IMG/VR virus record: IMGVR_UViG_3300019742_000001
Strand: one strand, 5' to 3'
DNA length: 64,000 bases
Source of the DNA: a virus
Lineage: Duplodnaviria > Caudoviricetes
Shown one piece after another: positions 4,643 to 29,093 of this stretch; the first letter of the stretch is position 1, and every line of letters starts with the position of its first letter. The notes beneath the pieces were generated by a model, which saw nothing but the letters and a program-made list of their open reading frames with translations, was not told where the DNA came from and made no database searches. Position numbers and translations under genes: made by a program.

Positions 4643-4725
4643 ATCATTCTCTCCCTTGTTTTAAATGTAATTAAACAATACACCAATTATACCTCACTGT
4701 CACTAAAAAACGATCCACTTTCTTA

Positions 4726-4754
4726 TTGACTATCTATCCATAATATCGTATCCT
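4726..4754 (+). promoter_or_regulatory. sigma70-like promoter for the + strand island
   Basis: TTGACT-17 nt-TATCCT. Confidence 0.5.
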
Positions 4755-4795
4755 CTCCTTACATTACTATAACTCTATTGAAAGGATTACCATAT

Positions 4796-4996
4796 ATGTT
4801 ATCAAATGAAACTGTTCGTGCTCTTGCTACTGCTCTCCGTTACTATGTACTATATGAAAGATCTAATCCAGAAGTCGGTATGGGTCCATCATTACCATGT
4901 CAAACCTCTGATATTCTTATTACTTCACAAATTGATGACACTAACGAAAATCGAACTCAAGTCATGACGGCTTATAATGAAAGATGGTCACGATGA
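4796..4996 (+). CDS. hypothetical protein
   Basis: AAGGA RBS before ATG 4796; stop overlaps the next ATG (ATGA). Confidence 0.5.
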   Translation: MLSNETVRALATALRYYVLYERSNPEVGMGPSLPCQTSDILITSQIDDTNENRTQVMTAYNERWSR

Positions 4997-5250
4997 ACAA
5001 ATTTAAAGTAGGGGATATCGTAAAAGTTAAACAGAATCTTACTGAGGTTGAGGGCAAATTTGGTGTCATTGACCGTATGAGAGAAATGTCTGGAAATACA
5101 TTTACTATATCTGAAGTGGTTGAACATTTTAACCCTCCAAGTAAATGCTCATATTCTTTAGATGGAGTGTCAAATCTTGGTTGGTACGATGAGTGGTTAG
5201 AACTATATGTTGAACCTGTCAAACTACCAGAGGATCTTTTTATATTATGA
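4993..5250 (+). CDS. small SH3/KOW-like protein with DLF tail
   Basis: MNKFKVGDIV...KLPEDLFIL*; start reassigned to the ATGA overlap. Confidence 0.8.
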   Translation: MNKFKVGDIVKVKQNLTEVEGKFGVIDRMREMSGNTFTISEVVEHFNPPSKCSYSLDGVSNLGWYDEWLELYVEPVKLPEDLFIL

Positions 5251-5501
5251 ACAACTTTAAAGTAGGGGATAAAGTTTGTGTCAAGACAGATTATACAAAT
5301 GAATATATGAATCCTAATAGTAGCCAATATAATAAAGAAAATAGTTTTCTGACTCATCACGGTCAACACCCATTCTATACCATATCTAGTATATCTGATT
5401 GTGGTAATTTTATTAGATTCAATGACTATGATAATGGATGGTCTAAAATCGTTTTTGAGTTATATAAAGAAACTTTTGATGAGGAGCTTTTTCATGTATA
5501 A
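5247..5501 (+). CDS. small protein with DLF tail
   Basis: MNNFKVGDKV...FDEELFHV*. Confidence 0.8.
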   Translation: MNNFKVGDKVCVKTDYTNEYMNPNSSQYNKENSFLTHHGQHPFYTISSISDCGNFIRFNDYDNGWSKIVFELYKETFDEELFHV

Positions 5502-5787
5502 AGTCGGTGATAAAATTAAAATTAAATCTTATAAAGAAATACATTCTCTATTGGAATTCGATAGTGACGGTGACGGTTTTACTAATACCATTCATTTTAA
5601 TGAAGAAAGAATGAAGAATGCCTGTGGTAAGACATTAACAATCATTAAAATAAGACCTTCTCCTGATGACCCTAATATTATATTATATGTTGCTCCAGTA
5701 AATGGTGATGAGTGGTGTTGGATTAAAGAATGGATCGAACCTTTTATCGAACCTGTTAAACTACCAGAGGATTTATTCATATTATGA
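5494..5787 (+). CDS. small protein with DLF tail
   Basis: MYKVGDKIK...KLPEDLFIL*; start reassigned from 5401. Confidence 0.8.
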   Translation: MYKVGDKIKIKSYKEIHSLLEFDSDGDGFTNTIHFNEERMKNACGKTLTIIKIRPSPDDPNIILYVAPVNGDEWCWIKEWIEPFIEPVKLPEDLFIL

Positions 5788-6008
5788 TATTCAAAAAAGG
5801 GGATGTAGTTGTGATTGACGAAAATACCAAATATGGTTTTTATAAAATGAAACTTAATCATCTTGTGGGTAAACCTCCGTATACCATATACAGTATATCA
5901 GAGAATGACCGTATCAAATTCTCTAAATTCGGTGACTCTTATCCTAATGACATGTTTGTATCATGCACTCAACCGATTCAACTTGATGATGACCTTTTTC
6001 AAATTTGA
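5784..6008 (+). CDS. small protein with DLF tail
   Basis: MIFKKGDVV...LDDDLFQI*. Confidence 0.8.
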   Translation: MIFKKGDVVVIDENTKYGFYKMKLNHLVGKPPYTIYSISENDRIKFSKFGDSYPNDMFVSCTQPIQLDDDLFQI

Positions 6009-6599
6009 CCATTAATACCTCTAAGGTTTCAACGTTTCCGGATACATATAAAAATACCCCTATAACTCATTCTATAGGGGTATCTCTCTCTATCTTTCTA
6101 ATATCATCTGTTTCTCTACTTCCGATTCTCGTTCATAATACTTTATCATATATGTTAATTCGGCATCTGTCTTTGAATAATCCCCTTCATCCAAATCCTT
6201 CTCTTTCTTTCTCAATATACTTATCTCTGAATCCAGTATAATGTCTCCTGCGCCCAGTTCTCTCAATCTATCAATCCGTTTCTTACGATTCTCTATATTT
6301 TCTTCACACTCTTGTTTTGTCGGTTTAGGAACTTCTGTAAATTCCTCTCCCATTAATTCTTTCCGACGTAACATTGCCTTCTCTCCTTGTTCTCTATACT
6401 CTTCCATATAGGCTTTCTCATCTTCATTAAACCGTTCAATGTCTTCTTGTAAATCTCGTGATGTAAATAACATTTCTTCTCTCCTTTAGGGTTATATTCA
6501 ATATCACTATCATACCACATATACCTCTAAGATTCCAACGTTTCCGGATATTCTCTCGTTTGACCATTTATACCCTAAAGGTTTCAACGTTTCCGGATA
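6004..6599 (+). repeat. direct repeat family with core CAACGTTTCCGGATA (6004-6044, 6521-6550, 6559-6599)
   Basis: Copies 1 and 3 match at 37/41 nt; copy 2 is a 30-nt partial copy. Confidence 0.9.
6090..6473 (-). CDS. hypothetical charged helical protein
   Basis: 127 aa; AAGGAG RBS; flanked by the direct repeats. Confidence 0.7.
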   Translation of the reverse strand: MLFTSRDLQEDIERFNEDEKAYMEEYREQGEKAMLRRKELMGEEFTEVPKPTKQECEENIENRKKRIDRLRELGAGDIILDSEISILRKKEKDLDEGDYSKTDAELTYMIKYYERESEVEKQMILER

Positions 6600-7781
6600 T
6601 ACCACATATGGTCTTTACGTCCCCGGATTATTAACATATTTCTATTTTTTTCTTCTTTCCTGTGTGTCGGTAAGATAACATACCTTTCTACCCTCCGTTA
6701 CCCTTTATCTCCCTTTTCAACCCCCCATACCCTCTCTATTCCTCTATAACTCCTATTCCTCTATAAATCCTATACTCTTTTACCCTCTATTCCCCCTATA
6801 TATCCTATACCTTATGTGGTATTCAAGGGATTTTGACCTTCATATCAATATACCTTCCGTTACTCAGTGTATAAGTTACTCAATTAGTTATATTTCACTC
6901 TTTTTACATCAATTCTGACAGGTTTTGTTCAAAAAAATTCTGTACACTAAAAATTCAGTCGGGTCTTTTTTTATCCCAAAAAGTTTTTCAAGTCAACTTT
7001 GTCAGGTTTGATTCTTAAAAATTACATAAGCAATGCACTATAGTTAAGGTATCCATTTAATTAAAAACTTTTTACACGGTTGACTTTTCACCTCACAGAA
7101 TCCTAATGTATATACTCTAATGAACACACACTAACTAATCTTCTCTCTCTAATCTTCTAATGTTTCTTTATTAATGCAATTATAATACTAATAGGCCATA
7201 ATAACATATTACTAATGAATACAATACTAATCATTAGAATTCCACAATTATTCGGGTAAACTCTGGTCTGCATAACTGAACAAAATATTCCCCATAATAT
7301 ACCAATAATAATATATACTACCATATCTGTTAATCTCCTTTTATATTTTCTAATTATATTTATCTTGTAGTGAATATGACTATATGGTATAATGGACTTG
7401 ACGACACAAAACTATATTCTAATGATAATATTTTTAATTATTAATTCTAATCTTAGTGTACAAATGACTCTCTACCATATGTGATGTCAAGTAAAAACTT
7501 ATCAACATATATGAAATGAGATATGTCTATAGTTAATTACCACATAAGGGGTGATGTAAGTATCTGTATTGATTAGGCATTATAATGAGTTAATGTAGTC
7601 AAAGTTTACATAATATACATTATACGACTTAAAATTTTCTAATTGTGGATAAGTTTTTGCTTGACATTTGGAATAATACACATATGGTATAACAGTTTTA
7701 TGTCGTCAATTCCATTATACCATATGACCCCATTATACACAAGATATAATTTAATACCATATGTGGTTACTGTAATAACGG

Positions 7782-8690
7782 TTACCCACGAACACATTCA
7801 GTCATCCATTCCTTTATATAATCTTCATCTGTTTTGTAATCTGACACATCAAGGAATATTGGATAACAATCACTTGGTGCATTATCATTTATACTATCTA
7901 ATACTACCATATCAAGTATATTTCCTCTACACTCTAATGTGAATTGCCTACCGTCTATTGATTTCTTTACTTTCATTACTTTATCCTTATGATACCCTAC
8001 AAACATTCTTACATATTTCTTATATAACTCATTATCATATAAGGTAGTCATATTAGATGTTTCCTGATCTACAACACTTATTACACTATTTTCATTAATT
8101 GGGGTAGTCACATTAGATGTTCCTTGATCTACAACACTTATTACACCATTTCTTAGTTTTTCACGATAACATACACCACATCTTGATCCTTTTCTCCAAT
8201 TATTATACAAAGTTTCAAAGATATGACCATTTGGACATCTCAACTTTAACTTCGTTCGTGCATTCCTATACCCTTCTATCAGTTCATACCCTTCCACTCT
8301 TATTATGTCTGATATTTCTCTTGACTTCTCTTCATTAATAGGTTTAGTGGTGGGTTCTTTTCTCACATATGGTATTGAGTCTGATTGTTGTTTCACTACC
8401 ACATAACCGCTCTTCCCACCTGTAGTCATATTATATCCATTGGGGTAGAGTGTACCTTTTAGTTCAATATAATATGATTCTAATACTTCCGCTTCTTCCT
8501 CTGTTATACCACTGACTAATATTTTCCATTCAAAATCATCCCAATTTTCACTTAGTGCTTGGGATATGGGTGTGGTAGTAGAGTTAATACTACTCCTATG
8601 GGAATTTTTTCTCTGTTCAAAGTTATTACACATTCCCACATAACCCTTACCATTAATGGTATTTGTTGCCTTGTATACTTGATATTTCAT
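7782..8690 (-). CDS. free-standing GIY-YIG homing endonuclease with C-terminal Zn-ribbon
   Basis: YQVYKATNTINGKGYVG...QRKNSH...EAEVLE...GYNMTTGG; CPNGH...CGVC. Confidence 0.85.
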   Translation of the reverse strand: MKYQVYKATNTINGKGYVGMCNNFEQRKNSHRSSINSTTTPISQALSENWDDFEWKILVSGITEEEAEVLESYYIELKGTLYPNGYNMTTGGKSGYVVVKQQSDSIPYVRKEPTTKPINEEKSREISDIIRVEGYELIEGYRNARTKLKLRCPNGHIFETLYNNWRKGSRCGVCYREKLRNGVISVVDQGTSNVTTPINENSVISVVDQETSNMTTLYDNELYKKYVRMFVGYHKDKVMKVKKSIDGRQFTLECRGNILDMVVLDSINDNAPSDCYPIFLDVSDYKTDEDYIKEWMTECVRG

Positions 8691-8724
8691 ATTTATCCTC
8701 CTGTAATAAAGTGTTATACATTAG

Positions 8725-8732
8725 TATTTATA
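8725..8732 (-). promoter_or_regulatory. T4-type late promoter TATAAATA
   Basis: Exact match 35 nt upstream of the GIY-YIG start. Confidence 0.6.
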
Positions 8733-8757
8733 CATTTATTACATTTATTACATTTAT
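8731..8757 (+). repeat. 9-bp tandem repeat TACATTTAT x3
   Basis: Seen directly. Confidence 0.9.
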
Positions 8758-9617
8758 TACACCTGATTATTATACTATATGTGATATGGTGTTGTAAATC
8801 AGTATTTATGTGATATGACTACCCTACCATATGTGATATACCCTTGTCAATCATTAGAATTGTCTATATTAGTGACATTTTCCTTGATTTTAGGTGTAAC
8901 TTGTGAGTTGGGTACTACATTCATCACATTTGTCATCGTAAATTAGAAGTTTTTTATTAATTAACCCTCTTTTTTCTCCTCAATTTTCATTTGTCAACTT
9001 TATCCGGAATTTTTCATTAAAAGGGTGCAAGTTGTCTAAGGTCATTATGCACATTAAGAAGATAGACACAAAAACCTATTGGTATCAAAGGGATTACAAA
9101 TTTATCATTAAAATATCAATAAAAAAGGTATTGGTATCAAAGGAATAAAAGGTATCAGCAAAAATTTTCAAAAGGGTTAAAATAGAGAAATGAAGTGAAT
9201 CCAATGAGTTATGTGGTATTACTACCTATGTAAAAGGTGTATATTTGTGTCAATTATTCCCTAAAATATCAATGATAAAAAGATCAATCATATCAATCAG
9301 TTAGAAGGGATCAAATAGTATAGGAGAAGTGAGAGGAATAGGAGATGAATAGGGTAATGATACTAAGTAGTTATAGAGGTATACTCTTTTTGTGTGTTCT
9401 ACCCCTATGATATCCACCTTACCTGTGTATAATCTAGTGTAATATGTGTGTTCCTACCCTATAATATATGTAAACTAATTAAATAACGTGTGATAATGAT
9501 GATTTATTAATGAGAAATATGTTAGAGGTTGATATAGATTAAATGAAGAGAAAAGTTGTTTTATGTTAATTTTTGAGAACAGTTGATATGTATGTTGTTA
9601 TATTGTTTAATCATTGT

Positions 9618-9920
9618 TTATACCTCAAAGAGATCATTGGGTAGATTGTTAATAGAAGGATCAATGAGAATGGTAGCATATTCATCGTAGTTGAGTGAGT
9701 GTTGTTGATGATCTTTGAAACGATTGTGATCAATGGATGTATGTTCAGTAGGATGTACAACTTTCATATTAATTAAGTCATATTCATATTTAGCGTTAGA
9801 TAATTGAATGATAGCATTGAAAGGGATTCTGTTGTTATCTTCGGAGTTATGAATAGTGACGAGAGTTCCAATAGGGAGATATTGTAATAGTTTTTTATTA
9901 TATTGTTGTTTCATGGTCAT
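9618..9920 (-). CDS. DLF-tail protein, subfamily I (PIGTxVTIHNS)
   Basis: Ends LPNDLFEV*. Confidence 0.85.
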   Translation of the reverse strand: MTMKQQYNKKLLQYLPIGTLVTIHNSEDNNRIPFNAIIQLSNAKYEYDLINMKVVHPTEHTSIDHNRFKDHQQHSLNYDEYATILIDPSINNLPNDLFEV

Positions 9921-9922
9921 GT

Positions 9923-10201
9923 TTATACCTCAAAGAGATCATTGGGTAGAGAAGAGTTAATGGTAGCATATTCGTTCTCATTAAGAGAGTGTTGGTTATG
10001 TTTTTTAAAACGACTGTGATTGATAGTTGTGGGTTCAGTAGGATGTACAACTTTCATATTAGAGTGGTCGTAACTGAATTCAATGATAGCTAATTGAATG
10101 ATAGCTTGGAATGGTTGATCATTGTTATCTTCGGAGTTATGAATAGTGACGTGTGTGCCAATAGGTAGATCTTGTAATTGTTGTTTATTATATCGTTTCA
10201 T
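9923..10201 (-). CDS. DLF-tail protein, subfamily I
   Basis: Ends LPNDLFEV*. Confidence 0.85.
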   Translation of the reverse strand: MKRYNKQQLQDLPIGTHVTIHNSEDNNDQPFQAIIQLAIIEFSYDHSNMKVVHPTEPTTINHSRFKKHNQHSLNENEYATINSSLPNDLFEV

Positions 10202-10203
10202 GA

Positions 10204-10488
10204 TTATACCTCAAAGAGATCATTGGGTAGATTGTTAATAGAAGGATCAATGAGAATAGTAGCGTATTCATTGGGTTCTAATAAGTGTTGATTATATTGA
10301 GTAAAGGTATGATGAGAAAGCATGATACCGACATCAGGGTTAATAGCCCGAGAATTGTTACCGTATACCAAAGAGTCTTGAGATATTTGAATGGTTCCAT
10401 TGAAAGGAGTAGGGTAAAAGTCAGAGTTATGAACAGTGACGTGAGTTCCAATAGGGAGATCATCAAGGTTATGGTATCGTTTATTCAT
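10204..10488 (-). CDS. DLF-tail protein, subfamily I
   Basis: Ends LPNDLFEV*. Confidence 0.85.
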   Translation of the reverse strand: MNKRYHNLDDLPIGTHVTVHNSDFYPTPFNGTIQISQDSLVYGNNSRAINPDVGIMLSHHTFTQYNQHLLEPNEYATILIDPSINNLPNDLFEV

Positions 10489-10490
10489 AG

Positions 10491-10757
10491 TTATACCTCA
10501 AAGAGATTGTCATCAAATAGGTTCGTCATTTTTGTTATGCCAGTTTTTGTTATGCCAGTAATTCTACATTCAGGTGTCCAATGAGTTCCATAGAATGTGA
10601 ATCTGCTGTGTCTTAGGTTATGGTTATTGTCAATAGGTTTAGTGCAATACCCAATAGCAGTGCTAGAGTTTTCAAATCCAACAATTCTTACATTGAATGA
10701 ATGATTGTCATGTTGTATTGTAACTAAATCGTTCACCTTATATTTGTGGTTATTCAT
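10491..10757 (-). CDS. DLF-tail protein, subfamily II
   Basis: Ends FDDNLFEV*; 95 bp identical to 11024-11290. Confidence 0.85.
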   Translation of the reverse strand: MNNHKYKVNDLVTIQHDNHSFNVRIVGFENSSTAIGYCTKPIDNNHNLRHSRFTFYGTHWTPECRITGITKTGITKMTNLFDDNLFEV

Positions 10758-10759
10758 AG

Positions 10760-11020
10760 TTATACCTCAAATAGATCATCATCAAATAGTGAGTCATCTA
10801 ATATAGAGAAGGTTTCTTTGTTAACGACATAGTGTTGTTTATTTTTTTTGTACATTGAGTGGTCCAAAAAGATATCAGGGTTAATAACTTTAATATTAGA
10901 GTTAGGAACAAATTGGACCGAACCATTGAAAGGTTTATAATCGTTATACTCAGAGTTATGAATAGTAACTCTAGTACCAATATGGATATTTTGTAGATGA
11001 TTAGGTTGATGTTTAATCAT
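10760..11020 (-). CDS. DLF-tail protein, subfamily I
   Basis: Ends LDDSLFDDDLFEV*. Confidence 0.85.
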   Translation of the reverse strand: MIKHQPNHLQNIHIGTRVTIHNSEYNDYKPFNGSVQFVPNSNIKVINPDIFLDHSMYKKNKQHYVVNKETFSILDDSLFDDDLFEV

Positions 11021-11023
11021 TGG

Positions 11024-11290
11024 TTATACCTCAAATAGATCATTAGGTAAAAGGTTTTTAGGTAAAAGGTTTTTAGGTTTAACTAATGAGATAACACATT
11101 TTTCCGTAATCCAATGAGTTCCATTTAATTTATATCTGGGATGGTCAAGTTTATGGTTATCATCAATAGGTTTAGTGCAATACCCAATAGCAGTGCTAGA
11201 GTTTTCAAATCCAACAATTCTTACATTGAATGAATGATTGTCATGTTGTATTGTAACAATATCATTCACCTTATATTTGTGAGTATTCAT
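11024..11290 (-). CDS. DLF-tail protein, subfamily II
   Basis: Ends LPKNLLPNDLFEV*. Confidence 0.85.
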   Translation of the reverse strand: MNTHKYKVNDIVTIQHDNHSFNVRIVGFENSSTAIGYCTKPIDDNHKLDHPRYKLNGTHWITEKCVISLVKPKNLLPKNLLPNDLFEV

Positions 11291-11292
11291 AG

Positions 11293-11559
11293 TTATACCT
11301 CAAAGAGATCATTAGGTAAAGGGTTAATGATCGTAAAAGATTCATTATCACTAAGGAAATGTTGTTTATTATTTTGGTAACGAGGATGATCTAATTGTAC
11401 ATCAGGTCTAACCAAGTTAATCTTATGTAGAGGATCTTTAGATAATTCAACAGTTCCAGAGAAAGGAATGCCATCATTATATTCAGTATTGGAAATATTG
11501 ATACGAGTACCAATAGGAAGATTTTGAATTAGATCATTAGGTTTATGTTTATCAGACAT
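11293..11559 (-). CDS. DLF-tail protein, subfamily I
   Basis: Ends LPNDLFEV*. Confidence 0.85.
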   Translation of the reverse strand: MSDKHKPNDLIQNLPIGTRINISNTEYNDGIPFSGTVELSKDPLHKINLVRPDVQLDHPRYQNNKQHFLSDNESFTIINPLPNDLFEV

Positions 11560-11562
11560 TGA

Positions 11563-11835
11563 TTATACCTCAAAGAGATCATTAGGTAAATGGTTAATGA
11601 TCGTAGCATATTCATCTTCACATATTTGGTGTTGTTTGTTTGATCTGTATCTGCCGTGGTCAATGAATACATCAGGGTTAATGACTTTGGTTTTCGATTC
11701 AGATATTTTTGTAGAGAATTGAACAGTGCCCGTGAAGGGTTGATTGTTATTATATGTAGTGTCATGGATAGTAACACGTGTACCAATAGGAAGATTTTCA
11801 ATAGATTGTTGATTATAATGTTTATTCATGTTCAT
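11563..11835 (-). CDS. DLF-tail protein, subfamily I
   Basis: Ends LPNDLFEV*. Confidence 0.85.
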   Translation of the reverse strand: MNMNKHYNQQSIENLPIGTRVTIHDTTYNNNQPFTGTVQFSTKISESKTKVINPDVFIDHGRYRSNKQHQICEDEYATIINHLPNDLFEV

Positions 11836-11837
11836 AG

Positions 11838-12116
11838 TTATACCTCAAAGAGATCATCAGGTAAGTTGTTACATTCGTAATTGATTATAGAGAAATATTC
11901 ACCATGGCACATAAAGTGTTGTTCGTGTATTCTATAGCGATCGTGTGATATTATAACGTGTTCATCAGGTTTAATAACTTTTTGGTTACGTTCATTACGG
12001 TCTAAGGATAGTTCTACCGTGGCATTAAAAGGTTTTCTATTATTGTATACCGAGTTATGAATAGTAACACGAGTACCAACATTTATAGATTGTAATTCTT
12101 CAGGGAGAAGTTTCAT
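11838..12116 (-). CDS. DLF-tail protein, subfamily I
   Basis: Ends LPDDLFEV*. Confidence 0.85.
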   Translation of the reverse strand: MKLLPEELQSINVGTRVTIHNSVYNNRKPFNATVELSLDRNERNQKVIKPDEHVIISHDRYRIHEQHFMCHGEYFSIINYECNNLPDDLFEV

Positions 12117-12529
12117 TATTTAACCAAACGGTAAGGTTTATTCCAAGTACCGATATTAATATCAATGTATCGTGAACGGTGGAAGTAGTCAGTCATAGAG
12201 TCATCGTTATTGAAGTAACCTTCCCCCTTCATAGCTTCGTGAAGTTCGTTAAGAACTTTGGCAAATTTGGGAGAGAAAGTGGAGTCAATATGATAGACAT
12301 TAACATTGATATTGTCAGTAGTAGTGTAAGGAGTTTCCCCGCGACGAACAGCGTTATAAGCCGATACTTCATTATAGTCAGTGAGGAAGTCCATGTAACC
12401 AGCGGCAATTTTGAGAACAAGAGTAGATCCGTTATGAACAGAGAGAGTACCCTTTAGTCCATTTTTGGAAAGAATGGCTTTGACTATAGGAGCGACAGCT
12501 TTTTTATCATCTTGAGATACATAAGCCAT
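12116..12529 (-). CDS. hypothetical protein without tail (MAYVSQDDKK type)
   Basis: 137 aa; AAAGGA RBS; higher GC than neighbours. Confidence 0.8.
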   Translation of the reverse strand: MAYVSQDDKKAVAPIVKAILSKNGLKGTLSVHNGSTLVLKIAAGYMDFLTDYNEVSAYNAVRRGETPYTTTDNINVNVYHIDSTFSPKFAKVLNELHEAMKGEGYFNNDDSMTDYFHRSRYIDINIGTWNKPYRLVK

Positions 12530-12603
12530 AATTGTGATCCTTTCAAAAAGAGTTAGTCTTGGTTACAGATCTATAGTAACACACTGGCATAATGAGTCAA
12601 GAG

Positions 12604-12855
12604 TTAAATAGTGAATAAGTCATTGTCAAGAATATGTATAGGTTTAGTGATATTGTCTAATGCAAGGTGATCTTCACAGTAAGAGTTGGATGATCCGGTA
12701 TCCCATTGTACCTTATAATTAAGTCTACCAGAATTATCGTCTTCAATAATAGTGCCAACAACCTTACCATATTTACCTCCATACTGAGGGTTGTTGATGT
12801 GGTCAGAATACTCATCTGTAATCAGTCTTACTCTATCATATATTTTAAATTTCAT
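12604..12855 (-). CDS. DLF-tail protein, subfamily IV (NNPxYGGKxG)
   Basis: Ends LDNDLFTI*; paralog of 13861-14112. Confidence 0.85.
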   Translation of the reverse strand: MKFKIYDRVRLITDEYSDHINNPQYGGKYGKVVGTIIEDDNSGRLNYKVQWDTGSSNSYCEDHLALDNITKPIHILDNDLFTI

Positions 12856-12858
12856 AAG

Positions 12859-13251
12859 TTATACCTCAAAGAGATTATCGTCAAAGGATGATTTCAAGTA
12901 AGTATCAACTTTATTACATACATCAACAGGAGCGTTACGTCGAGTATTGGTTATGTAATCAATGAAGTCATATTTATTTTCGGATGAATTTAAGTTTCTA
13001 ACGAATACCCCTCTCATGATATAGGCAACAGGTTTGATAAATTCCATTTCAAAGTGATGGAATGGGTCACCAAATTCATAAATATCGTATCCATGACCAA
13101 AACTATCATGTCCAAGTCGAATGAATCTGTTATCAGGTGACAGAGAAGTGATCATATAAGGAGGTTCACCATATCGGTCAAGGTGTTCTTTGGCATTTTG
13201 TGTTCTACCTGTCAATACTTGAACATAGTCACCTACTTTAAATGGATTCAT
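12859..13251 (-). CDS. DLF-tail protein (FKVGD start)
   Basis: Ends FDDNLFEV*. Confidence 0.85.
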   Translation of the reverse strand: MNPFKVGDYVQVLTGRTQNAKEHLDRYGEPPYMITSLSPDNRFIRLGHDSFGHGYDIYEFGDPFHHFEMEFIKPVAYIMRGVFVRNLNSSENKYDFIDYITNTRRNAPVDVCNKVDTYLKSSFDDNLFEV

Positions 13252-13253
13252 AG

Positions 13254-13580
13254 TTATACCTCAAACAGATCATTGTCAAGAAATTGTGGTTTAGTGATTA
13301 CAATGAAGCCATAGTCAACTTTCTGTTTATATTTCTGACAGTACATCATTAGTATTTCCATATCATTATCTAGTTTAATGGCGTATACAGTATCACGACT
13401 GAATTCATGTTGACTACTGTTAATAATAACACCAGTTAGTCCAACCAAATTTTCAGAGTCACTATACCCACTAACATAGTTTTTCAATTGAAGTTTGTTA
13501 GCCATGTCTTGGTATGTTGAGTAGCATTTACCAGTATCAACAATTTCAACATGGTCACCAATTTGTGGATCTTTATTCAT
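13254..13580 (-). CDS. DLF-tail protein, subfamily III (QIGDxV)
   Basis: Ends LDNDLFEV*. Confidence 0.85.
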   Translation of the reverse strand: MNKDPQIGDHVEIVDTGKCYSTYQDMANKLQLKNYVSGYSDSENLVGLTGVIINSSQHEFSRDTVYAIKLDNDMEILMMYCQKYKQKVDYGFIVITKPQFLDNDLFEV

Positions 13581-13582
13581 AG

Positions 13583-13858
13583 TTACACCTCAAATAATTT
13601 ATCATCGGTGAAGTCATTGATATTATATCGTTGACCTTTCCAAGTGTTATAGTTTTCGTTACGGCATTCAATAGGTACGTAATTTTCGATATACTGAATA
13701 TGGTCATTCCAAAATGGTTTGATCATAGGATGTGCGTGTAACAGTGCTTCATCATATCGACCACGTAATAATAATTCAGTACAAGAACCAGCAGGGATAC
13801 CGTGTTCTATCCACATATCAATAGCACTAACAATATTATCATCAACACATAGATTCAT
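13583..13858 (-). CDS. DLF-tail protein with an unrelated helical body
   Basis: IEHGIPAGS...; ends TDDKLFEV*. Confidence 0.8.
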   Translation of the reverse strand: MNLCVDDNIVSAIDMWIEHGIPAGSCTELLLRGRYDEALLHAHPMIKPFWNDHIQYIENYVPIECRNENYNTWKGQRYNINDFTDDKLFEV

Positions 13859-13860
13859 AG

Positions 13861-14112
13861 TTATACCTCAAATAAGTCATCATCAAAAAGAGGAGGTTGG
13901 ATATCCAATACCAGATCTTTATCACAATAATTGTTGTACCTGTCATCCGTCCACTTAACATTATATACGAATTGGCTATCTCCATCATTAATTGACGTAA
14001 TCTCACCAACAACATTTCCGTGTTTGCCGCCATATAATGGATTATTTGAAAGGTCACCATACTTACCACTAACATATCTTACTTTGTCACCTAATTTAAA
14101 CATAATTATCAT
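13861..14112 (-). CDS. DLF-tail protein, subfamily IV
   Basis: Ends FDDDLFEV*. Confidence 0.85.
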   Translation of the reverse strand: MIIMFKLGDKVRYVSGKYGDLSNNPLYGGKHGNVVGEITSINDGDSQFVYNVKWTDDRYNNYCDKDLVLDIQPPLFDDDLFEV

Positions 14113-14456
14113 ACCTCAAAGAGATTATCATCAAAAAGATTGGGAGTTGAAGTGACAATGAAACCACGATTTTGTTCCCCATAAGTATACTCGTATCCGA
14201 TAATAATATCAATAGGATTATTATCATCAAGTATGAGTCTGACACCATATACCATTCTATTTTCTTCTTGTAGGTGTTTGCCTTTTGCGACGATCACTCC
14301 TACCATACCTTCTTTGATTATATCACTACCAACAACTTTCATAAAATTAAAATATTCCAATTTAAGATTGATAGCCATTTCAAAGTAGCTGGGATATATC
14401 TCACCAGAATTGGTAATTTTTACATTATCGCCAATTTGTGGTTCTCTGTCAGTCAT
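14109..14456 (-). CDS. DLF-tail protein, subfamily III
   Basis: Ends FDDNLFEV*. Confidence 0.85.
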   Translation of the reverse strand: MTDREPQIGDNVKITNSGEIYPSYFEMAINLKLEYFNFMKVVGSDIIKEGMVGVIVAKGKHLQEENRMVYGVRLILDDNNPIDIIIGYEYTYGEQNRGFIVTSTPNLFDDNLFEV

Positions 14457-14458
14457 AA

Positions 14459-14758
14459 TTATACCTCAAATAGTGAGTCATCTAATATATTGGGAGTTGA
14501 AGTGACAATGAAACCACGATCTGATTCATCTGCACTGTAACCCATTAAAATATCAGTACCATTTTGTAATCGTATACCGTAAATTAACTTTCCTGTATCA
14601 GATCCAGAAATAACACCAATTTCTCCGTTCTTGGTGGTTAAATTAGATATGTAATTGGTAAGATTCAGTTTATCAGCCATTAATTGGTAAGTGGTATATT
14701 GTCTGCCATTGTTGGTGATTTTGACACTATCACCAATTTGTGGGAAATTTGTATTCAT
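14459..14758 (-). CDS. DLF-tail protein, subfamily III
   Basis: Ends LDDSLFEV*. Confidence 0.85.
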   Translation of the reverse strand: MNTNFPQIGDSVKITNNGRQYTTYQLMADKLNLTNYISNLTTKNGEIGVISGSDTGKLIYGIRLQNGTDILMGYSADESDRGFIVTSTPNILDDSLFEV

Positions 14759-14760
14759 AA

Positions 14761-15015
14761 TTATACCTTACCCTTTGCCATAGATTTGAAACCTTCACTA
14801 ATTAATTTCATCCGTGATGGTGTGTAATTACTGCAACCGAAGTCGTGATTAATACTTGATGGGTGTGTTTCAACTCTATCCATCAATGTAATTTTTTCAC
14901 CTTCTACTGGGCAATGAGTGATTTTGGTTTGTTGGTGATTACATTTAACAAGTTTACTGTCAAACATATTCCGACTTAACCATTTACAATCTTTACAAAA
15001 TATTTTTGGTTCCAT
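14761..15015 (-). CDS. hypothetical Cys-rich protein (no tail)
   Basis: FCKDCKW...KCNH...FGCSNY. Confidence 0.7.
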   Translation of the reverse strand: MEPKIFCKDCKWLSRNMFDSKLVKCNHQQTKITHCPVEGEKITLMDRVETHPSSINHDFGCSNYTPSRMKLISEGFKSMAKGKV

Positions 15016-15045
15016 AGATGTGCCTTTCTATTTGGTTATGGATAG

Positions 15046-15074
15046 ATATTACAGTAGGTGGTATGATGAGTCAA
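15046..15074 (-). promoter_or_regulatory. sigma70-like promoter driving the tail-gene array
   Basis: TTGACT-17-TAATAT. Confidence 0.65.
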
Positions 15075-15325
15075 GAGTTAAATGTATATGTATCAGGTAG
15101 TTGATCAGTGATGGGTTGGTCATCTTTGTAATGCCATAGTAATTGGAATCCTTCTGAGGTTAGAAAAATCCCCTCCAAGACGATAATACCAGCATGTGTT
15201 AATTTATGGCAATTTGGACATAGGAGGCAGATATTCGATTTAGAATTATCGCCCCCTTTTGACCTACTCTGTATGTGGTGTTTGTCCAATAGTGCTGGAG
15301 TGTTGCATATTTGACAAGGTTTCAT
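15071..15325 (-). CDS. HNH endonuclease
   Basis: CQIC...DKHHIQSRSKGGDNSKSNICLLCPNCHKLTH. Confidence 0.9.
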   Translation of the reverse strand: MKPCQICNTPALLDKHHIQSRSKGGDNSKSNICLLCPNCHKLTHAGIIVLEGIFLTSEGFQLLWHYKDDQPITDQLPDTYTFNS

Positions 15326-15360
15326 TAAGATATTATAGTATGTGTGTCACTTAATGTCAA

Positions 15361-16170
15361 TTACTCGTTAATCATTTCGTCTAATAGTTTTGTTTTAACC
15401 ACACTGGTATAGATATCATATCCAACAAGTATAGAGTTACCATCTGTCCAACATTCTCTATCATCATTCTTTGGTAATGCACCACCAGCAACGATTAGCT
15501 TGAATTTATAAGGTTTGAGTATTTCGTTCAACATTTCGGAACATGATTTATCGTGATCAACCATATATGTCAACAATTGATTTGATGTTTTATTAAAGAA
15601 TTCTATTCTGGCATCACTATTCATATTTGCCCACATTTCATCGATACGCATAACAGAATCTCTAAGAGTATTCCAATCTTTGGCAATGTATTTCTTTTCA
15701 CCTATGAGTCTATTATATAGTTCAGACAGTTCATAGTTAACATCAGCAATAGTGGTATAATATCCTTTGAAACTATCCCAGAAATCACTAGCAGGGCATA
15801 ATCCAATAGAAGAATTATCATAAGGTAGTACAAGGTATCGTTCATCCATAGTGCCATATGCCCCATCAAGACTACTTGAGCATATAAGTGATTGACTTCT
15901 TTTAGGAAATTTAGACCATTGTTTTGAGTTATCTATCCATAGAGTATAATGATTATCAGTATTTGCTGATTTTCTATTGAATTTGGATGGTTCAACATAA
16001 CCGAAGTCACTACGAATAGACACATGACCTCTAAATAGACCTTGTTTATCTTCTGTGAATCGTCTCCATGCTTTACGACAGTTTTTCTTGATGATTTGTG
16101 CTGCTTCATCCATGTTAACGACTTTGGTTCTACCTTCTTTTGATTCTGATATAAACGATTGTAATCTCAT
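15361..16170 (-). CDS. putative ADP-ribosyltransferase-fold virion protein, subfamily A
   Basis: Leader MRLQSFISE; LFRGH / SLICSSS / RECW. Confidence 0.55.
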   Translation of the reverse strand: MRLQSFISESKEGRTKVVNMDEAAQIIKKNCRKAWRRFTEDKQGLFRGHVSIRSDFGYVEPSKFNRKSANTDNHYTLWIDNSKQWSKFPKRSQSLICSSSLDGAYGTMDERYLVLPYDNSSIGLCPASDFWDSFKGYYTTIADVNYELSELYNRLIGEKKYIAKDWNTLRDSVMRIDEMWANMNSDARIEFFNKTSNQLLTYMVDHDKSCSEMLNEILKPYKFKLIVAGGALPKNDDRECWTDGNSILVGYDIYTSVVKTKLLDEMINE

Positions 16171-16200
16171 TGAATAATATTCTCCTGTGTGGTATACTAT

Positions 16201-16208
16201 TATTTATA
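16201..16208 (-). promoter_or_regulatory. late promoter TATAAATA
   Basis: Exact match about 30 nt upstream of 16170. Confidence 0.7.
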
Positions 16209-16256
16209 TTTACAGTGATAATTTATGGTGTTATATTATAGGAAAAGGGGGTATAT

Positions 16257-16535
16257 ATGTCGTTCAAAGAGGGTGATAGTGTTAGGTTACTTCTGTGTAA
16301 AGATATGAATGTATCTTTACGTACTGAGTGGGCTGAGTGGTGGAAGAAAAACAAAAATACAGTATTCACTTTATCGGAATATCGGACAAATGGTAATTGG
16401 TTTATGAAATATCCTAATGGTGATACTGTGTATAATCTACGTGGTGGTGGTGATGACCCAATAACATTTAATCATACAGAGATATATGTATGTAATCCAC
16501 CTATTAAATGGGAAGAGGATTTATTTGAGATATGA
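16257..16535 (+). CDS. DLF-tail protein
   Basis: MSFKEGDSV...WEEDLFEI*. Confidence 0.8.
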   Translation: MSFKEGDSVRLLLCKDMNVSLRTEWAEWWKKNKNTVFTLSEYRTNGNWFMKYPNGDTVYNLRGGGDDPITFNHTEIYVCNPPIKWEEDLFEI

Positions 16536-16888
16536 TTAAATATTATGCACTAAATGATGATAATATAGCAGTTGAGTGTAATATGGAGTATGCACTACTT
16601 TGTGGTACAGAGGATCTTGTTAGTAATATCATTCAACAAACAGATGTTAGTGATGGTTTGATGGTATCAACAATATTCTTGGGAATGGATCATTGTTTTG
16701 GTGGTAGTGAATCAACACCTTTGTTGTTTGAGACAATGTTGATGGGTAACACAGAAGAGGAAGAAGTATGTGTTAGATATGAAACATATGTTCAAGCAGT
16801 GGAAGGTCATTGGAATATGGTCAAAAGATATGGTGGTTCAAAACCAGTGTCGTTACCATTGTTAGATGATAATCTGTTTATCTTATAG
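16532..16888 (+). CDS. DLF-tail protein with an unrelated body (VSTIFLGMDH...LLFETM)
   Basis: Ends LDDNLFIL*. Confidence 0.8.
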   Translation: MIKYYALNDDNIAVECNMEYALLCGTEDLVSNIIQQTDVSDGLMVSTIFLGMDHCFGGSESTPLLFETMLMGNTEEEEVCVRYETYVQAVEGHWNMVKRYGGSKPVSLPLLDDNLFIL

Positions 16889-17143
16889 GGTGAACAGATC
16901 ATCTTTGAAATGATTTGGTTGGTATTCACATAGATCAGTACAGTCATCTTTATCTAAGAATTGGTTTACCACATCCCATGTCATTTTATGTGTAATATTA
17001 TCATCTAATGAGACAAACTCAATATGTTGTCGTATACAATCATTCATTACGCACACCCATATAATGGGATCGTTAACTTCTGCCGAGTCAATCTCAATAT
17101 ATTGTTGTCCTCTAATAAAGTCTTTTGCCTTAGTCATTTTCAT
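16883..17143 (-). CDS. DLF-tail protein
   Basis: Ends FKDDLFTL*; stop overlaps the convergent neighbour. Confidence 0.75.
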   Translation of the reverse strand: MKMTKAKDFIRGQQYIEIDSAEVNDPIIWVCVMNDCIRQHIEFVSLDDNITHKMTWDVVNQFLDKDDCTDLCEYQPNHFKDDLFTL

Positions 17144-17544
17144 GATGGATTCGTAATCATTGAATATAGAGTTAGTTTCTTGGTTAGTTTTATTCCCATC
17201 TTATTAAGAAGAATAGACCATATAATAGAAGAAATTGAAATTACATTACTTGACCATACATATACAACAGGAAGACCAATGCCATAAATTGATACTGACA
17301 AAATGAGTAATATGATTAATATAGCAACAACCATAACATTGAGATACCAAGTAGCAGAGAAGTTCAATACTTTCACTAAGTCACGATGAACAGTAAGTTC
17401 TTGTTCTCGTTCATATATCAGTTGTCTAGGCACATCTTGTCTTATCTTTGACAACACTCGTGCGGCATCAGTATAATCATTATCCATACCATGTAGAAAT
17501 ATTTTTTCACATTCTTTCATCATTTTTCTTTCGGATCTTGTCAT
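17140..17544 (-). CDS. hypothetical membrane protein
   Basis: Two hydrophobic segments in the C-terminal half. Confidence 0.7.
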   Translation of the reverse strand: MTRSERKMMKECEKIFLHGMDNDYTDAARVLSKIRQDVPRQLIYEREQELTVHRDLVKVLNFSATWYLNVMVVAILIILLILSVSIYGIGLPVVYVWSSNVISISSIIWSILLNKMGIKLTKKLTLYSMITNPS

Positions 17545-17577
17545 TCGTATATCCCTTTCCAGATTTTAGTTAAGATG

Positions 17578-17606
17578 ATAGTATCATAGGTGTAAGTGAG
17601 TGTCAA
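17578..17606 (-). promoter_or_regulatory. sigma70-like promoter
   Basis: TTGACA-17-TACTAT. Confidence 0.65.
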
Positions 17607-17610
17607 ATAT

Positions 17611-17618
17611 TATAAATA
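17611..17618 (+). promoter_or_regulatory. late promoter TATAAATA heading the leader-protein cluster
   Basis: Exact match 30 nt upstream of ATG 17648. Confidence 0.7.
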
Positions 17619-17647
17619 TAACTGAAACCAAAATATATGGAGAATAT

Positions 17648-18631
17648 ATGAGATTTGAAGATTTACTATTGAATGAGAAGGCAATGACACCGAAACAGGC
17701 TATCAAGTTTGCTACTGATACTGATTATAATAATATATCAAGTGCGTCAGAGAAAGAGTTCATTGAGACATGGAAAATGATAACCAAGGAGTGTAAAGGT
17801 TTCATTCGTGAATTGAGGAAAGGTGATCAATTATTGTTTAGAGGTATGAAAAACATAGACAATATGGGTAGCAGAGTACCGAGGAAGAATCGTAGACCTT
17901 TGGATACACCAACCGCAGTAAGTGACAAAGCCGATGAAATAATATTAGAGTTATTTGGATGGAAACCGAGACAAGAGGGTTTATTCACAACAGGAAATAC
18001 ATTGTTTGCTGGTGGGTATGGTGATATTTGCATGGTCTTTCCGGTAGACAAGTATGATATACTATGGAGTTCAAAGACAACTGATGCATATTCCAAATTA
18101 AGAGATAGGTCAATTGGTGATTACATTAGGAAGAACTACACAAAAGAATTGAAGACAATGTATGATAAAAAATTTGCTGAGGGACATGAGGGTGTGTATC
18201 GGATAAGAGATAAAGGATATAATGTACCACTCCAAAAGAAATATAGGATTAAAAAAGCTGCAATCAAGTATTATGTTGATTATATTAAACAAAGTAACTT
18301 GATTCAAGGGGATGTAGAAGAGTTCGTAAAAGATAATATATATTGGGACCCAGAGAGGTCATTTGATGGTTTCCTTAATTGGGTAAGACATGGGTATTTT
18401 CTTGATGAAGGTAGGAAGTCGTGGCCAGAAGGATTTGATAAATTATTCAGTGATGCTGTTGAGAAGATGGTAATTGATGAACTTGATTATAATGATAAAG
18501 ATTTAAGAAAGGCGATACAATCAGGTAATGAGATTCAAGTAAAGTGTGACAAATACTATTACATTGGACTGGAATGTATGCCATTAGTTGAATTATGTTT
18601 ATGGGGTAAGACGATAAGGAGTGAAATTTAA
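17648..18631 (+). CDS. putative ART-fold virion protein, subfamily B
   Basis: Start reassigned (GGAG RBS, MRFEDLLLNEK); LLFRGM / EGLFTTG / GNEIQV. Confidence 0.55.
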   Translation: MRFEDLLLNEKAMTPKQAIKFATDTDYNNISSASEKEFIETWKMITKECKGFIRELRKGDQLLFRGMKNIDNMGSRVPRKNRRPLDTPTAVSDKADEIILELFGWKPRQEGLFTTGNTLFAGGYGDICMVFPVDKYDILWSSKTTDAYSKLRDRSIGDYIRKNYTKELKTMYDKKFAEGHEGVYRIRDKGYNVPLQKKYRIKKAAIKYYVDYIKQSNLIQGDVEEFVKDNIYWDPERSFDGFLNWVRHGYFLDEGRKSWPEGFDKLFSDAVEKMVIDELDYNDKDLRKAIQSGNEIQVKCDKYYYIGLECMPLVELCLWGKTIRSEI

Positions 18632-19281
18632 TGAGATTACAACAATACATAACAGAAGGTGTTAGTGTAAAATATGATGACATATATGATATAATACCAC
18701 TAATAAAACGTGATTGTAAGAAGTGGATTAATGAAAGTAACGGACAGTTTGCGTTTAGAGGTATGAAAAACAAACCATTATTTATTAAACATGACGTAAG
18801 GAAAAACAGAAAACCAAAAGATACATCAAAGTCCCAACATGAATTGATGGATAACGTGATGAATGACAAATTTGGATGGCATCCTCGTTCTGAGGGTTTG
18901 TTTTGTTCGGGTGATATGATGTCAACAACTGATTATGGTGTTCCATACATGATATTTCCTATAGGTGATTATAGATATGTATGGAACCCAAAAGTTAAAG
19001 ATAGTTTTCTTGATACTTCTAACTTTTCATCATGGTGGGTCCAATTACTGAGTATTGCTATCGAAGATAAATTCTTAAATAAATTTATTATGGAAAAATC
19101 AACTAAAAAAATGTTGAAGGGGTACATTGATACTGGATTAAGTAACGCATTAAGACGAGATAATGAGGTAATGGTCGAATGTAAAGAGTATTATGCTATA
19201 CGAGCAGAATCCATACATAGTGTATATAATGATGACGCTCCATATGCATCATTCACAGACTTTTTGGTGGATATATCATGA
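18631..19281 (+). CDS. putative ART-fold virion protein, subfamily B
   Basis: MRLQQYITE; FAFRGM / EGLFCSG / DNEVMV. Confidence 0.55.
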   Translation: MRLQQYITEGVSVKYDDIYDIIPLIKRDCKKWINESNGQFAFRGMKNKPLFIKHDVRKNRKPKDTSKSQHELMDNVMNDKFGWHPRSEGLFCSGDMMSTTDYGVPYMIFPIGDYRYVWNPKVKDSFLDTSNFSSWWVQLLSIAIEDKFLNKFIMEKSTKKMLKGYIDTGLSNALRRDNEVMVECKEYYAIRAESIHSVYNDDAPYASFTDFLVDIS

Positions 19282-19874
19282 GATTACAACAATACATAAC
19301 AGAGAAGGCATCAAAGAACACCATTGTATGTGATGTTCAACCAATGTATGAACAATATCAGTCATTTGAGACATATGAGTTCACTGAATTCCTTAATACT
19401 CAAACTAAACAAGTTATGTATTATTTCAATGGACCTGATACTGTTGGTACTGATACAGAGAGTGATATCAAATACTGGTTGATTGAGAATGGATTGAATG
19501 AGGAAAAACTCAATGATATCACATTCTTTGATAAGGGGTATGCATATTTCCGATCATTTATGGATGAAGGTATATCCGAACATACAATAATCAAGATGAT
19601 TAGATATATGTTCAAGACAAGACAATGGGATTCACGTGATATAGAAAATGAAGAGTGGGAGAAGGCATTGGGTAGTGACTATGATAGTGATGTTGAACAT
19701 ATGTTAGACAGTGGTGATATGATTTATCCACCTGATATTGATATTCGTCAACTAAGGCAACACGGTGGAGGGTATATCGTAGGTGGTGGTAAGAGAGAAT
19801 GTTTGGCAGAACTTCAATTATTGATGTCTGCGTTTAATATAAAAGCAAGAGAAATTAAAAGATATGTATATTAG
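19278..19874 (+). CDS. isochorismatase/cysteine-hydrolase-like protein with leader
   Basis: MRLQQYITE; IVCDVQP...DKGY...IVGGGKRECL (D-K-C triad pattern). Confidence 0.55.
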   Translation: MRLQQYITEKASKNTIVCDVQPMYEQYQSFETYEFTEFLNTQTKQVMYYFNGPDTVGTDTESDIKYWLIENGLNEEKLNDITFFDKGYAYFRSFMDEGISEHTIIKMIRYMFKTRQWDSRDIENEEWEKALGSDYDSDVEHMLDSGDMIYPPDIDIRQLRQHGGGYIVGGGKRECLAELQLLMSAFNIKAREIKRYVY

Positions 19875-19883
19875 GAGATTATA

Positions 19884-20600: not shown

Positions 20601-20623
20601 TTAAAGTATGGAGGAATAATAGT

Positions 20624-21520: not shown

Positions 21521-21547
21521 AGAAATCACTAAAGAGGGTGGAAGTAT

Positions 21548-22387: not shown

Positions 22388-22391
22388 GTTT

Positions 22392-28494: not shown

Positions 28495-28505
28495 AGGAGG
28501 TTATT

Positions 28506-28772
28506 ATGGAAATTGTATTTGGTTTGATTGGTGCATTTGCTTTGTTTCTCTTAGGTGCGTTATGTCTTCCATTACTGTTGTTCTTGAGGGCAAGACGTGA
28601 TGGTGATTGGGATGATTCTAATATAACAAATATGTATCGTGTTGTGGCACATTTAGGTGCCCACCCAAGTGATTTCGGTAAAATGATGTATTCGGATGGA
28701 AAGAAACCATTTTGGTATATCAACAAGGATGAACTTAGTGATGTGGTTGATTCAAGACCTAGTGATGATTAA
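28506..28772 (+). CDS. hypothetical membrane protein
   Basis: N-terminal hydrophobic helix; GGAGG RBS. Confidence 0.7.
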   Translation: MEIVFGLIGAFALFLLGALCLPLLLFLRARRDGDWDDSNITNMYRVVAHLGAHPSDFGKMMYSDGKKPFWYINKDELSDVVDSRPSDD

Positions 28773-28774
28773 AT

Positions 28775-28808
28775 AAAAAGGGGGATGACTAATAATCATC
28801 CCCTTTTT
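28775..28808. terminator. bidirectional intrinsic terminator
   Basis: AAAAAGGGGGATGA-ctaataa-TCATCCCCTTTTT between convergent genes. Confidence 0.85.
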
Positions 28809-29090: not shown

Positions 29091-29093
29091 AGT

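Follow-up and report, generated by a model that had tools for sequence, protein, structure and literature searches.

The 64,000-nucleotide stretch of DNA analysed here (the window) comes from IMG/VR virus record IMGVR_UViG_3300019742_000001 (Duplodnaviria; Caudoviricetes) and carries, on both strands, a set of small open reading frames (ORFs) whose products share one C-terminal octapeptide, [LFW]-[PDE]-[NDE]-x-L-F-x-[VIL], directly before the stop codon. This peptide, here called the DLF tail, is very probably a tag for docking onto a hub of some kind. The source is an uncultured, distantly T4-like phage (longest contig 239,651 bp). The window has a guanine-cytosine content of 31-38% and encodes a B-family DNA polymerase with 29% identity to those of T4-like cyanophages, together with a gp41-type helicase, UvsW, RtcB, NAPRTase, PurA and a RimK-like ligase.

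Several related sequences were used for comparison. The closest complete relative retrieved is G001 (IMG/VR contig 3300037424_000434; 235,765 bp, 98% complete), whose polymerase is 68% identical to that of the window; the figure for G004 is 45%. G003 is a 51-kb fragment, L013 a 4.1-kb contig and L012 the left flank of the window. The 88 strict tails that were pooled came from the window and its left flank and from G001, G002, G003, G004 and L013; a set of 52 tail proteins served for position counts and for clustering of the bodies.

Genes carrying the tail

A first-pass annotation of the window had listed 23 ORFs with the shared motif, and all 23 were confirmed, coordinates and ends alike (Table 1). 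When residues were shuffled within each ORF, 0.003 strict C-terminal matches were expected per window, where 22 were found; with the looser pattern LF.[VIL]$ the figures were 0.6 expected and 23 found. The strict motif occurs 22 times at the C-terminus and once internally, in a probably spurious ORF. One start codon needs revision: the ORF listed from 5401 is real, but it most likely begins at 5494, where an ATG overlaps the previous stop. The tally of 23 also holds only as a lower figure. Four further tail genes lie just left of the window, adjoining an LpxC-like gene, the UvsW helicase has a tail-like end, and an ORF between the gp41 helicase and uvsW may be a 24th member, although no homolog of it was found in G001, G003 or G004.

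Table 1. Positions of tail genes and other features in the window
Feature	Position	Strand	Remarks
Tail gene 1, SH3-like (MNKFKVGD...)	4993-5250	+	ends KLPEDLFIL; longest ORF from 4984
Tail gene 2, SH3-like	5247-5501	+	ends TFDEELFHV
Tail gene 3, SH3-like (MYKVGD...)	5494-5787	+	ends KLPEDLFIL
Tail gene 4, SH3-like	5784-6008	+	ends QLDDDLFQI
GIY-YIG homing-endonuclease-like gene	7782-8690	-	
Nine tandem paralogous tail genes (LPIGT/YKVND type)	9618-12116	-	all end [LF][PD][ND][DN]LFEV; every EV (GAGGTA) is also the next gene's Shine-Dalgarno site
First five of the nine	9618-9920, 9923-10201, 10204-10488, 10491-10757, 10760-11020	-	
Last four of the nine	11024-11290, 11293-11559, 11563-11835, 11838-12116	-	
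LPD29-like gene (phrog_10415), within array	12116-12529	-	no tail
Tail gene, MIB/HERC2-like SH3/Tudor barrel (predicted)	12604-12855	-	ends ILDNDLFTI
Tail gene, 130 residues, SH3-like N-terminus plus extra domain	12859-13251	-	ends SFDDNLFEV
Tail gene, PQIGD family	13254-13580	-	ends FLDNDLFEV
Tail gene, all-helical body	13583-13858	-	ends FTDDKLFEV
Tail gene, MIB/HERC2-like SH3/Tudor barrel (predicted)	13861-14112	-	ends LFDDDLFEV
Tail gene, PQIGD family	14109-14456	-	ends LFDDNLFEV
Tail gene, PQIGD family	14459-14758	-	ends ILDDSLFEV
Small HNH gene	15071-15325	-	
Sigma-70 promoter, perfect consensus TTGACA-17-TATAAT	15332-15360	-	heads minus-strand operon
Tail gene, SH3-like	16257-16535	+	ends KWEEDLFEI; G001 homolog also tailed
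Tail gene, different fold, widespread in phages	16532-16888	+	ends LLDDNLFIL
Tail gene, no clear fold match	16883-17143	-	ends HFKDDLFTL
RimK-type ATP-grasp ligase fused to PF05618 'Zn_protease' (RimB-like) domain	26980-28494	+	
DNA polymerase (gp43-like)	49749-52517	-	ends QNQAFKAFFG
Possible 24th tail ORF, 85 residues, gp41 helicase-uvsW interval	61514-61771	+	ends DYEDLFRM; uncertain
UvsW helicase	62261-63721	+	ends FNNETLFTIE; tail-like with one extra residue

The tail as a selected peptide

The most constant part of the tail is L-F, which had been described as fixed four and three residues from the C-terminus. This holds for 23/23 window tails and for all 88 pooled tails. Across the 52 tail proteins, position -3 is always F (52/52) and position -4 is L in 49/52. 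The residues before them are largely acidic: position -5 is D in 28 and E in 14, and position -6 is E, D or N. At position -7, D (30) and P (14) dominate over N (3), E (2), K (2) and T (1), and Q never occurs; proline is also enriched further upstream, at -11/-12. By these counts the selected peptide is [L/F]-[D/P]-[E/D/N]-[D/E]-L-F-x-[V/L/I]-COOH.

The argument from codon diversity that selection acts on the protein was well founded. Leu in the 23 window tails is encoded by CTC (9), TTA (5), CTT (3), CTA (3) and CTG (3), and Phe by TTT (20) and TTC (3). The 88 pooled tails use all six Leu codons at position -4 (CTA 22, TTA 20, TTG 15, CTC 10, CTG 9, CTT 8) and both Phe codons (TTT 53, TTC 35). 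In addition, a comparison of tail and body codons in the window paralog families, of the dN/dS kind that the first-pass annotation had proposed, gave ratios of nonsynonymous to synonymous differences (pN/pS, Nei-Gojobori) of 0.26-0.36 in tails and 0.59-0.77 in bodies, with synonymous differences present in the tails. The use of every Leu codon and a tail pN/pS well below that of the bodies argue for selection on the tail at the protein level.

One part of the tail serves a second purpose. In 15 window tails the terminal E-V is encoded by GAG GTA, which is followed by TAA, 2-3 nucleotides and an ATG. As GAGGT is well spaced before this ATG, E-V doubles as the Shine-Dalgarno site for the gene downstream. 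Tails with no gene behind them, or with an ATGA overlap at the next start, finish in IL, HV, QI, TI or TL; for instance, the tail gene at 12604-12855 lacks EV because no gene lies close behind it. Most tails in the relatives likewise end x-[L/I/V] ahead of an ATGA overlap. It is thus only the final EV of the window phage's tail that is dual-coded, and of the motif as first written, ending in EV, the core is conserved as amino acids while the EV is shaped by the overlapping ribosome-binding site. A T4 prohead-protease site (L-x-E) was rejected as an identity for the tail because its E is specific to the window phage and is explained by that site.

Such overlaps raise the alternative that the likeness between tails is a nucleotide-level by-product of translational coupling, or of 3'-end recombination or gene conversion, and that the peptide has no function. 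GAGGTA as the next gene's Shine-Dalgarno site in the window and the ATGA overlaps after most tails in relatives fit this, as does a lower synonymous divergence in the tail than in the body of the largest family (pS 0.28 vs 0.61). However, the amino acids are fixed despite six Leu and two Phe codons, the L-F core and the acidic positions are held with or without a ribosome site inside the tail, and unrelated genes retain the tail even between phages with polymerase identities of just 45-68%. This alternative is largely refuted, and we give it hardly any credence.

Bodies and portability

With tails removed, BLAST sorts the bodies into 10 clusters in the window and 28 among the 52 tail proteins. 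The proteins encoded from 13583, 16532 and 16883 are singletons, with no significant BLAST match to other window tail proteins. Most bodies, however, have in common an N-terminal strand, F-K-x-G-D-x-V, of the kind that typifies SH3/KOW-like barrels. The claim that the tail sits on several unrelated families was overstated, as most bodies belong to one SH3/Tudor-like superfamily. Similarly, the three bodies described as lacking visible similarity are singletons by BLAST, and structural evidence for a non-barrel fold applies to two of them, 13583 and 16532.

Predicted structures separate body from tail. The AlphaFold2 model of the protein encoded from 13861 has a barrel with a predicted local distance difference test score (pLDDT) of 89-97 and a tail at about 70. 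The best folds for its family, which includes the 12604 protein, are YorP (2HEQ), PsaE and the PHF1 Tudor domain, and the family profile matches both MIB/HERC2 domains of MIB1 (E 6.5e-4); a match to Pfam MIB_HERC2 is below threshold. The body of this family is accordingly modelled as a MIB/HERC2-like SH3/Tudor barrel. The 13583 protein is predicted to be all-helical (pLDDT >90) with a tail below 50, and its helical body had no fold match in the PDB. For the 16532 protein, structural matches end near residue 105 of 118, just ahead of the tail. In these models the tail appears flexible, being loosely ordered or disordered. Word-based homolog searches for 16532 and 13861 returned no protein beyond the queries.

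The 13583 family provides a case of a tail gained or lacking. The first-pass annotation had suggested looking for homologs without the tail, and both kinds exist. Four homologs in other phages carry it (LDKELFKI, LDEDIFTL, FDDEVFEL and KNEVFEL), whereas P0004, P0006 and P0007 stop before the tail position and a copy on viral contig L048 is also untailed. The genomic surroundings differ in the same way. On L013, which encodes a tailed homolog, 7/17 genes have a strict tail (9-10 by a looser scan), whereas L014 and L048, with untailed homologs, are devoid of tail genes. It follows that the tail belongs to the lineage and can be added to, or be missing from, a given family, in line with the portability originally proposed.

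Carriers also extend beyond small barrels. Strict tails occur on the UvsW helicase of a further relative, G005 (FDLPEDLFEV), on a P-loop protein and a Cys-rich protein in the gp46-uvsX interval of G001, and on a P-loop protein of G004. Near-consensus ends are found on a DUF932 protein of G001 (...SDLFVVS, two residues beyond F-V) and on a 191-residue protein in the clamp loader-clamp interval of G004 (...SNLFSMDE, two residues beyond F-x-M); the latter was considered as gp62 and rejected. In total, the tail is carried by at least four fold types.

Distribution and tail swapping

Scanning relatives with the C-terminal pattern, as had been proposed, recovered strict tails in every one named above as a source of pooled tails. 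G001 has 14 (about 16 by ORF scan), G002 has 3, G003 has 28 (pattern control 1), and G004 has 10, plus about six near-consensus ends that often finish in M with at most three extra residues. Cultured phages yielded nothing, either for the array in a near-identity DNA search or for a tail protein by tblastn. Across IMG/VR, an exact-codon tail pattern found single chance matches only, while a degenerate pattern found 67 loci, 9 of them real and the remainder chance. A profile of the barrel family retrieved 677 representatives from 1.84 billion proteins; among the best 150 of these, 42 have the strict tail, 5 a QLxLF tail and 10 a [D/E]-W-[D/N]-type tail. Taken together, the tail is widespread in an uncultured giant T4-like clade, with 15-40 carriers per phage.

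A literature search for the motif strings or for a described system found no publication. The statement that no such phage system had been described is accurate for the motif and its scale, but C-terminal hub-docking tails as such are known from T4 gp43, gp33 and gp55, T7 gp2.5 and gp4, and Mu MuC. The literature searched contained neither the motif, nor the number of proteins per genome (15-40), nor the swapping of tails within one barrel family.

This swapping is seen in sister phages. Contigs L049/L050 encode a run of four small neighbouring proteins with the ends QLNLF, QLNLFRG, QLKLFSEEVNIS and QLKLFGGEI; judged by eye, one of the four has no evident sequence likeness to the barrel proteins. 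Further ends on L051, L143, L144 and L145 are QLSLFGE, QLKLF, QLRLF, QLPLF..., QLKLFKE and QLNLFSKEEK. These QLxLF tails stand at variable distances from the C-terminus. On L052, three neighbouring proteins end instead in GWDPDRNW (370-687), ETDWDL (726-968) and GDWDEAGNRG (1019-1204). In sister phages, then, the same barrel family has a canonical clamp motif or a DWD-type tail in place of DLF. QL[SD]LF is an established bacterial beta-clamp-binding motif, so the same C-terminal place bears a recognised clamp ligand that is common to many neighbours. Relatives of the QLxLF-phage contigs, all of which are shorter than 5 kb, were sought for the status of a gp45-type clamp, and none was found.

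What the tail may bind

The explanation that best fits these observations is that the tail would be a short linear peptide for docking, portable between proteins and in most cases preceded by a linker that contains proline, with the consensus hydrophobic-[D/P]-[E/D/N]-[D/E]-L-F-x-[V/I/L]-COOH. A giant T4-like clade would have put it on many small, early-expressed proteins, mostly SH3/Tudor (MIB/HERC2-like) barrels; Cys-rich, DUF932, P-loop and helical proteins are among the other carriers, as is the UvsW helicase of one relative. Each variable body would bind its own target, while the constant tail would tether them all to one common hub. The likeliest hub would be a DNA sliding clamp, either the phage gp45-type clamp or the beta clamp of the host, and docking there would concentrate the toolbox on DNA or compete for the clamp. 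We rate the clamp as hub at slightly less than an even chance. The likeness to clamp-binding tails, already pointed out in the first-pass annotation, is the best lead, and sister phages, which place canonical QLxLF at the same position, lend it weight.

A clamp of the required kind is encoded in the clade. The clamp gene lies outside the window, but G001 has a gp45-type clamp at 4722-5483 (phrog_223, processivity factor, E 3.9e-8) adjoining gp44 and gp62, and G004 has a clamp homolog; Pfam gp45 models found no match in G001, where the PHROG model did. Clamp tails of T4-like phages offer a partial precedent. The C-termini fetched were SLDFLFG for T4 gp43, SLDFLYEAND for T4 gp55 and SLFDMFDF for RB69 gp43. 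Counted from the C-terminus, D-L-F-E-V is in register with RB69 D-M-F-D-F, but its spacing is unlike that of T4 L-D-F-L-F. The gp45-binding tails of T4 and RB69 are likewise extreme C-terminal acidic-hydrophobic peptides that bring several unlike proteins to one hub. They sit on the polymerase and late transcription factors, however, whereas the carriers of the DLF tail are 15-40 early proteins, mostly small ones, and this tail has two to three acidic residues between its first hydrophobic residue and L-F.

Bacteriophage Mu provides a second precedent, on the host clamp. MuC binds the beta clamp via QHDLF and QPDLF, and an L-to-A change abolishes clamp binding; Mor has only the DLF of the consensus, and L-to-A there abolishes toxicity and transcription activation (PMC12867686). 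For the superfamily, the consensus is Qx[D/E][L/M]F (PMC12867686). The DLF tail shares the [D/E]-[L/M]-F core with these proteins, as well as its use by small phage-encoded regulators, and the [S/D]-L-F core of the beta-clamp motif is present in it.

Several points weigh against the clamp as hub. The polymerases of the clade end QNQAFKAFFG (window), QNQAFNFFFGG (G001, 28414-31179) and SKCFDIFF (G004). These resemble T4-type clamp tails (LDFLFG-like) and differ from the DLF tail, so a gp45 hub would need two types of ligand. The G001 gp55 homolog has no such tail either. For the host beta clamp, the DLF tail lacks the Gln of QL[SD]LF at position 1 and is acidic rather than hydrophobic at position 2, although Mu QHDLF and QPDLF also deviate at position 2. 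The fixed two-residue extension ending in V/I/L suggests that a free C-terminus is read, since a near-fixed distance and a hydrophobic last residue are features that beta-clamp motifs do not need. There is also no apparent reason for 15-40 different proteins to gather on one clamp. We infer, rather than show, both that the tail docks in trans and which hub it reaches. Finally, the phage LpxC used as a query for the host found no close relative. Two other candidate links to the clamp were dropped: identity of the tail with the polymerase tail, on the C-termini above, and a 280-residue protein ending NFFG as a second clamp ligand, which is a baseplate protein.

Another many-partner docking signal, the tail of single-stranded DNA-binding protein (SSB), had been named as a resemblance. 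The SSB tip DDDIPF and the tails of T7 gp2.5 and gp4 do combine an acidic run with an aromatic residue at the C-terminus, but the DLF tail has its Phe inside the peptide and does not finish in Pro-Phe. As no tail ends PF, and the tail of G001 gp32 (ALLAELSDM) also differs, an SSB-tail reading is unlikely, and mimicry of the gp32 tail was rejected. G001 additionally encodes, next to a tail-gene region, a 121-residue protein ending LLDDDIPF, the exact SSB tip (81629-81994, minus strand; L039:1629-1994). It had no Pfam or PHROG match and is a small mimic of the SSB tail or else a highly diverged SSB. The separate presence of this protein and the end of gp32 set the DLF tail apart from both the SSB and the gp32 signals.

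A different hub that reads free C-termini is the alternative to the clamp that we take most seriously, although it too is rather unlikely. Candidates are a PDZ-like or other peptide receptor, gp32, UvsX, gp46/47, host RNA polymerase, or phage ubiquitin-like conjugation enzymes, in which case the variable bodies would be interchangeable substrate receptors. At the sequence level, all window tails end in F-x-[VIL]-COOH, which formally qualifies as a class II PDZ ligand, and they keep a nearly fixed C-terminal distance and an invariably hydrophobic last residue. Tail genes cluster near gp46, uvsX, uvsW and clamp-loader genes, the bodies are like the MIB/HERC2 domain of E3 ligases, and G001 and G004 encode a ThiF-type E1. 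However, PDZ_2 (PF13180) was not found in G001, G003 or G004, where control profiles matched, and bacterial PDZ proteins are mostly periplasmic. The co-occurrence with E1 comes from two related genomes and discriminates nothing, and the known ligand motifs of the candidate hubs are unlike the tail. Tethering of another kind is exemplified by SspB, a small beta-barrel with a flexible linker and a conserved C-terminal ClpX-binding peptide. The same architecture, in which a flexible linker joins a variable small beta-domain to a conserved tether at the extreme C-terminus, invites the suggestion that the DLF tail is a shared degradation signal for timed removal of early proteins, or that its carriers are SspB-type adaptors to an AAA+ protease. 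Non-polar C-termini are classical degrons, and a putative metallopeptidase of G001 is flanked by three genes, two with the tail and one whose end is tail-like. Yet the tail is acidic and resembles neither LAA nor the LRVVK of SspB, no protease partner or link was found, and the helicase, ATPase and DUF932 proteins would also have to be short-lived or adaptors, all of which makes a role in proteolysis improbable.

The tail might also bind the SH3/Tudor-like barrels themselves, in cis or between proteins, as an autoinhibitory or oligomerising element of a multivalent network. Most carriers are barrels of a peptide-binding type, the 13861 tail is modelled with moderate confidence (about 70) rather than as fully disordered, and proline is common at -7, as in SH3 ligands. 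This nevertheless seems very unlikely, as proteins of non-barrel fold also carry the tail, which is disordered when modelled there, and the QLxLF and DWD-type tails on the same barrels in sister phages suit external hubs better.

Returning to the docking peptide, we tentatively propose an address-tag system in which one C-terminal octapeptide would recruit 15-40 early proteins of different folds to one hub, with a sliding clamp on DNA as the foremost candidate. The barrels would have switched hubs by tail swaps (DLFx-hydrophobic, QLxLF, DWD-type) and would act as interchangeable adaptors for varied targets, for example in host defence or takeover. To our knowledge, only a minority of the early genes in large phages have a known function, and a shared tag allows dozens of them to be approached together by experiment. 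If the hub is the clamp, its 'tool-belt' role would widen beyond a handful of replication and transcription factors to take in a large set of effectors that evolves fast, and the QLxLF, DWD-type and DLF-type tails within one barrel family would show phage rewiring between hubs. The motif is also a practical annotation marker for a large clade of uncultured phages.

Expression and neighbouring genes

Early expression of the tail arrays is plausible. From the consensus sigma-70 promoter of Table 1, the minus-strand operon passes through the HNH gene and the 16-gene array, and good sigma-70-like sites also lie upstream of 16257 and of the 17544-16883 gene pair. Early timing can be taken no further than this, as promoter-like sites taken together show no enrichment relative to shuffled sequence.

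The tail arrays are flanked by the GIY-YIG homing-endonuclease-like gene and the small HNH gene, which are possible agents of local gene turnover. Within the arrays, the LPD29-like gene occupies the same place in the window, in G001 (55847-56473) and in G003 (5455-5841), holding its position though all surrounding genes have turned over. It was considered as a specific receptor of the tail and rejected, because it is widespread in phages.

Many proteins encoded at 15361-24543 of the window start with M-[R/K]-[L/F]-x-x-Y-L-x-E, which resembles the capsid-targeting leader of T4. The same start occurs in G003 (L120-L122) at 1497, 10752, 11327, 14957, 15451, 39542, 45358 and 46677. From these sequences, the clade seems to use an N-terminal tag besides the C-terminal one, with the two kinds of gene interleaved.

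Three further genes have unusual structures. The polymerase of G004 is divided between two ORFs about 5 kb apart (one given at 117047-117871). In bacteria, the RimK/RimB pair adds and trims C-terminal glutamates of ribosomal protein S6; the window encodes the two activities' likely counterparts as a single RimK-PF05618 fusion, for which no connection to the tail was found. Lastly, the SbcC-like gp46 of G001 (181777-184224; L044:1777-4224) has an intein-like N-terminal insert with weak Intein_splicing and PT-HINT matches.

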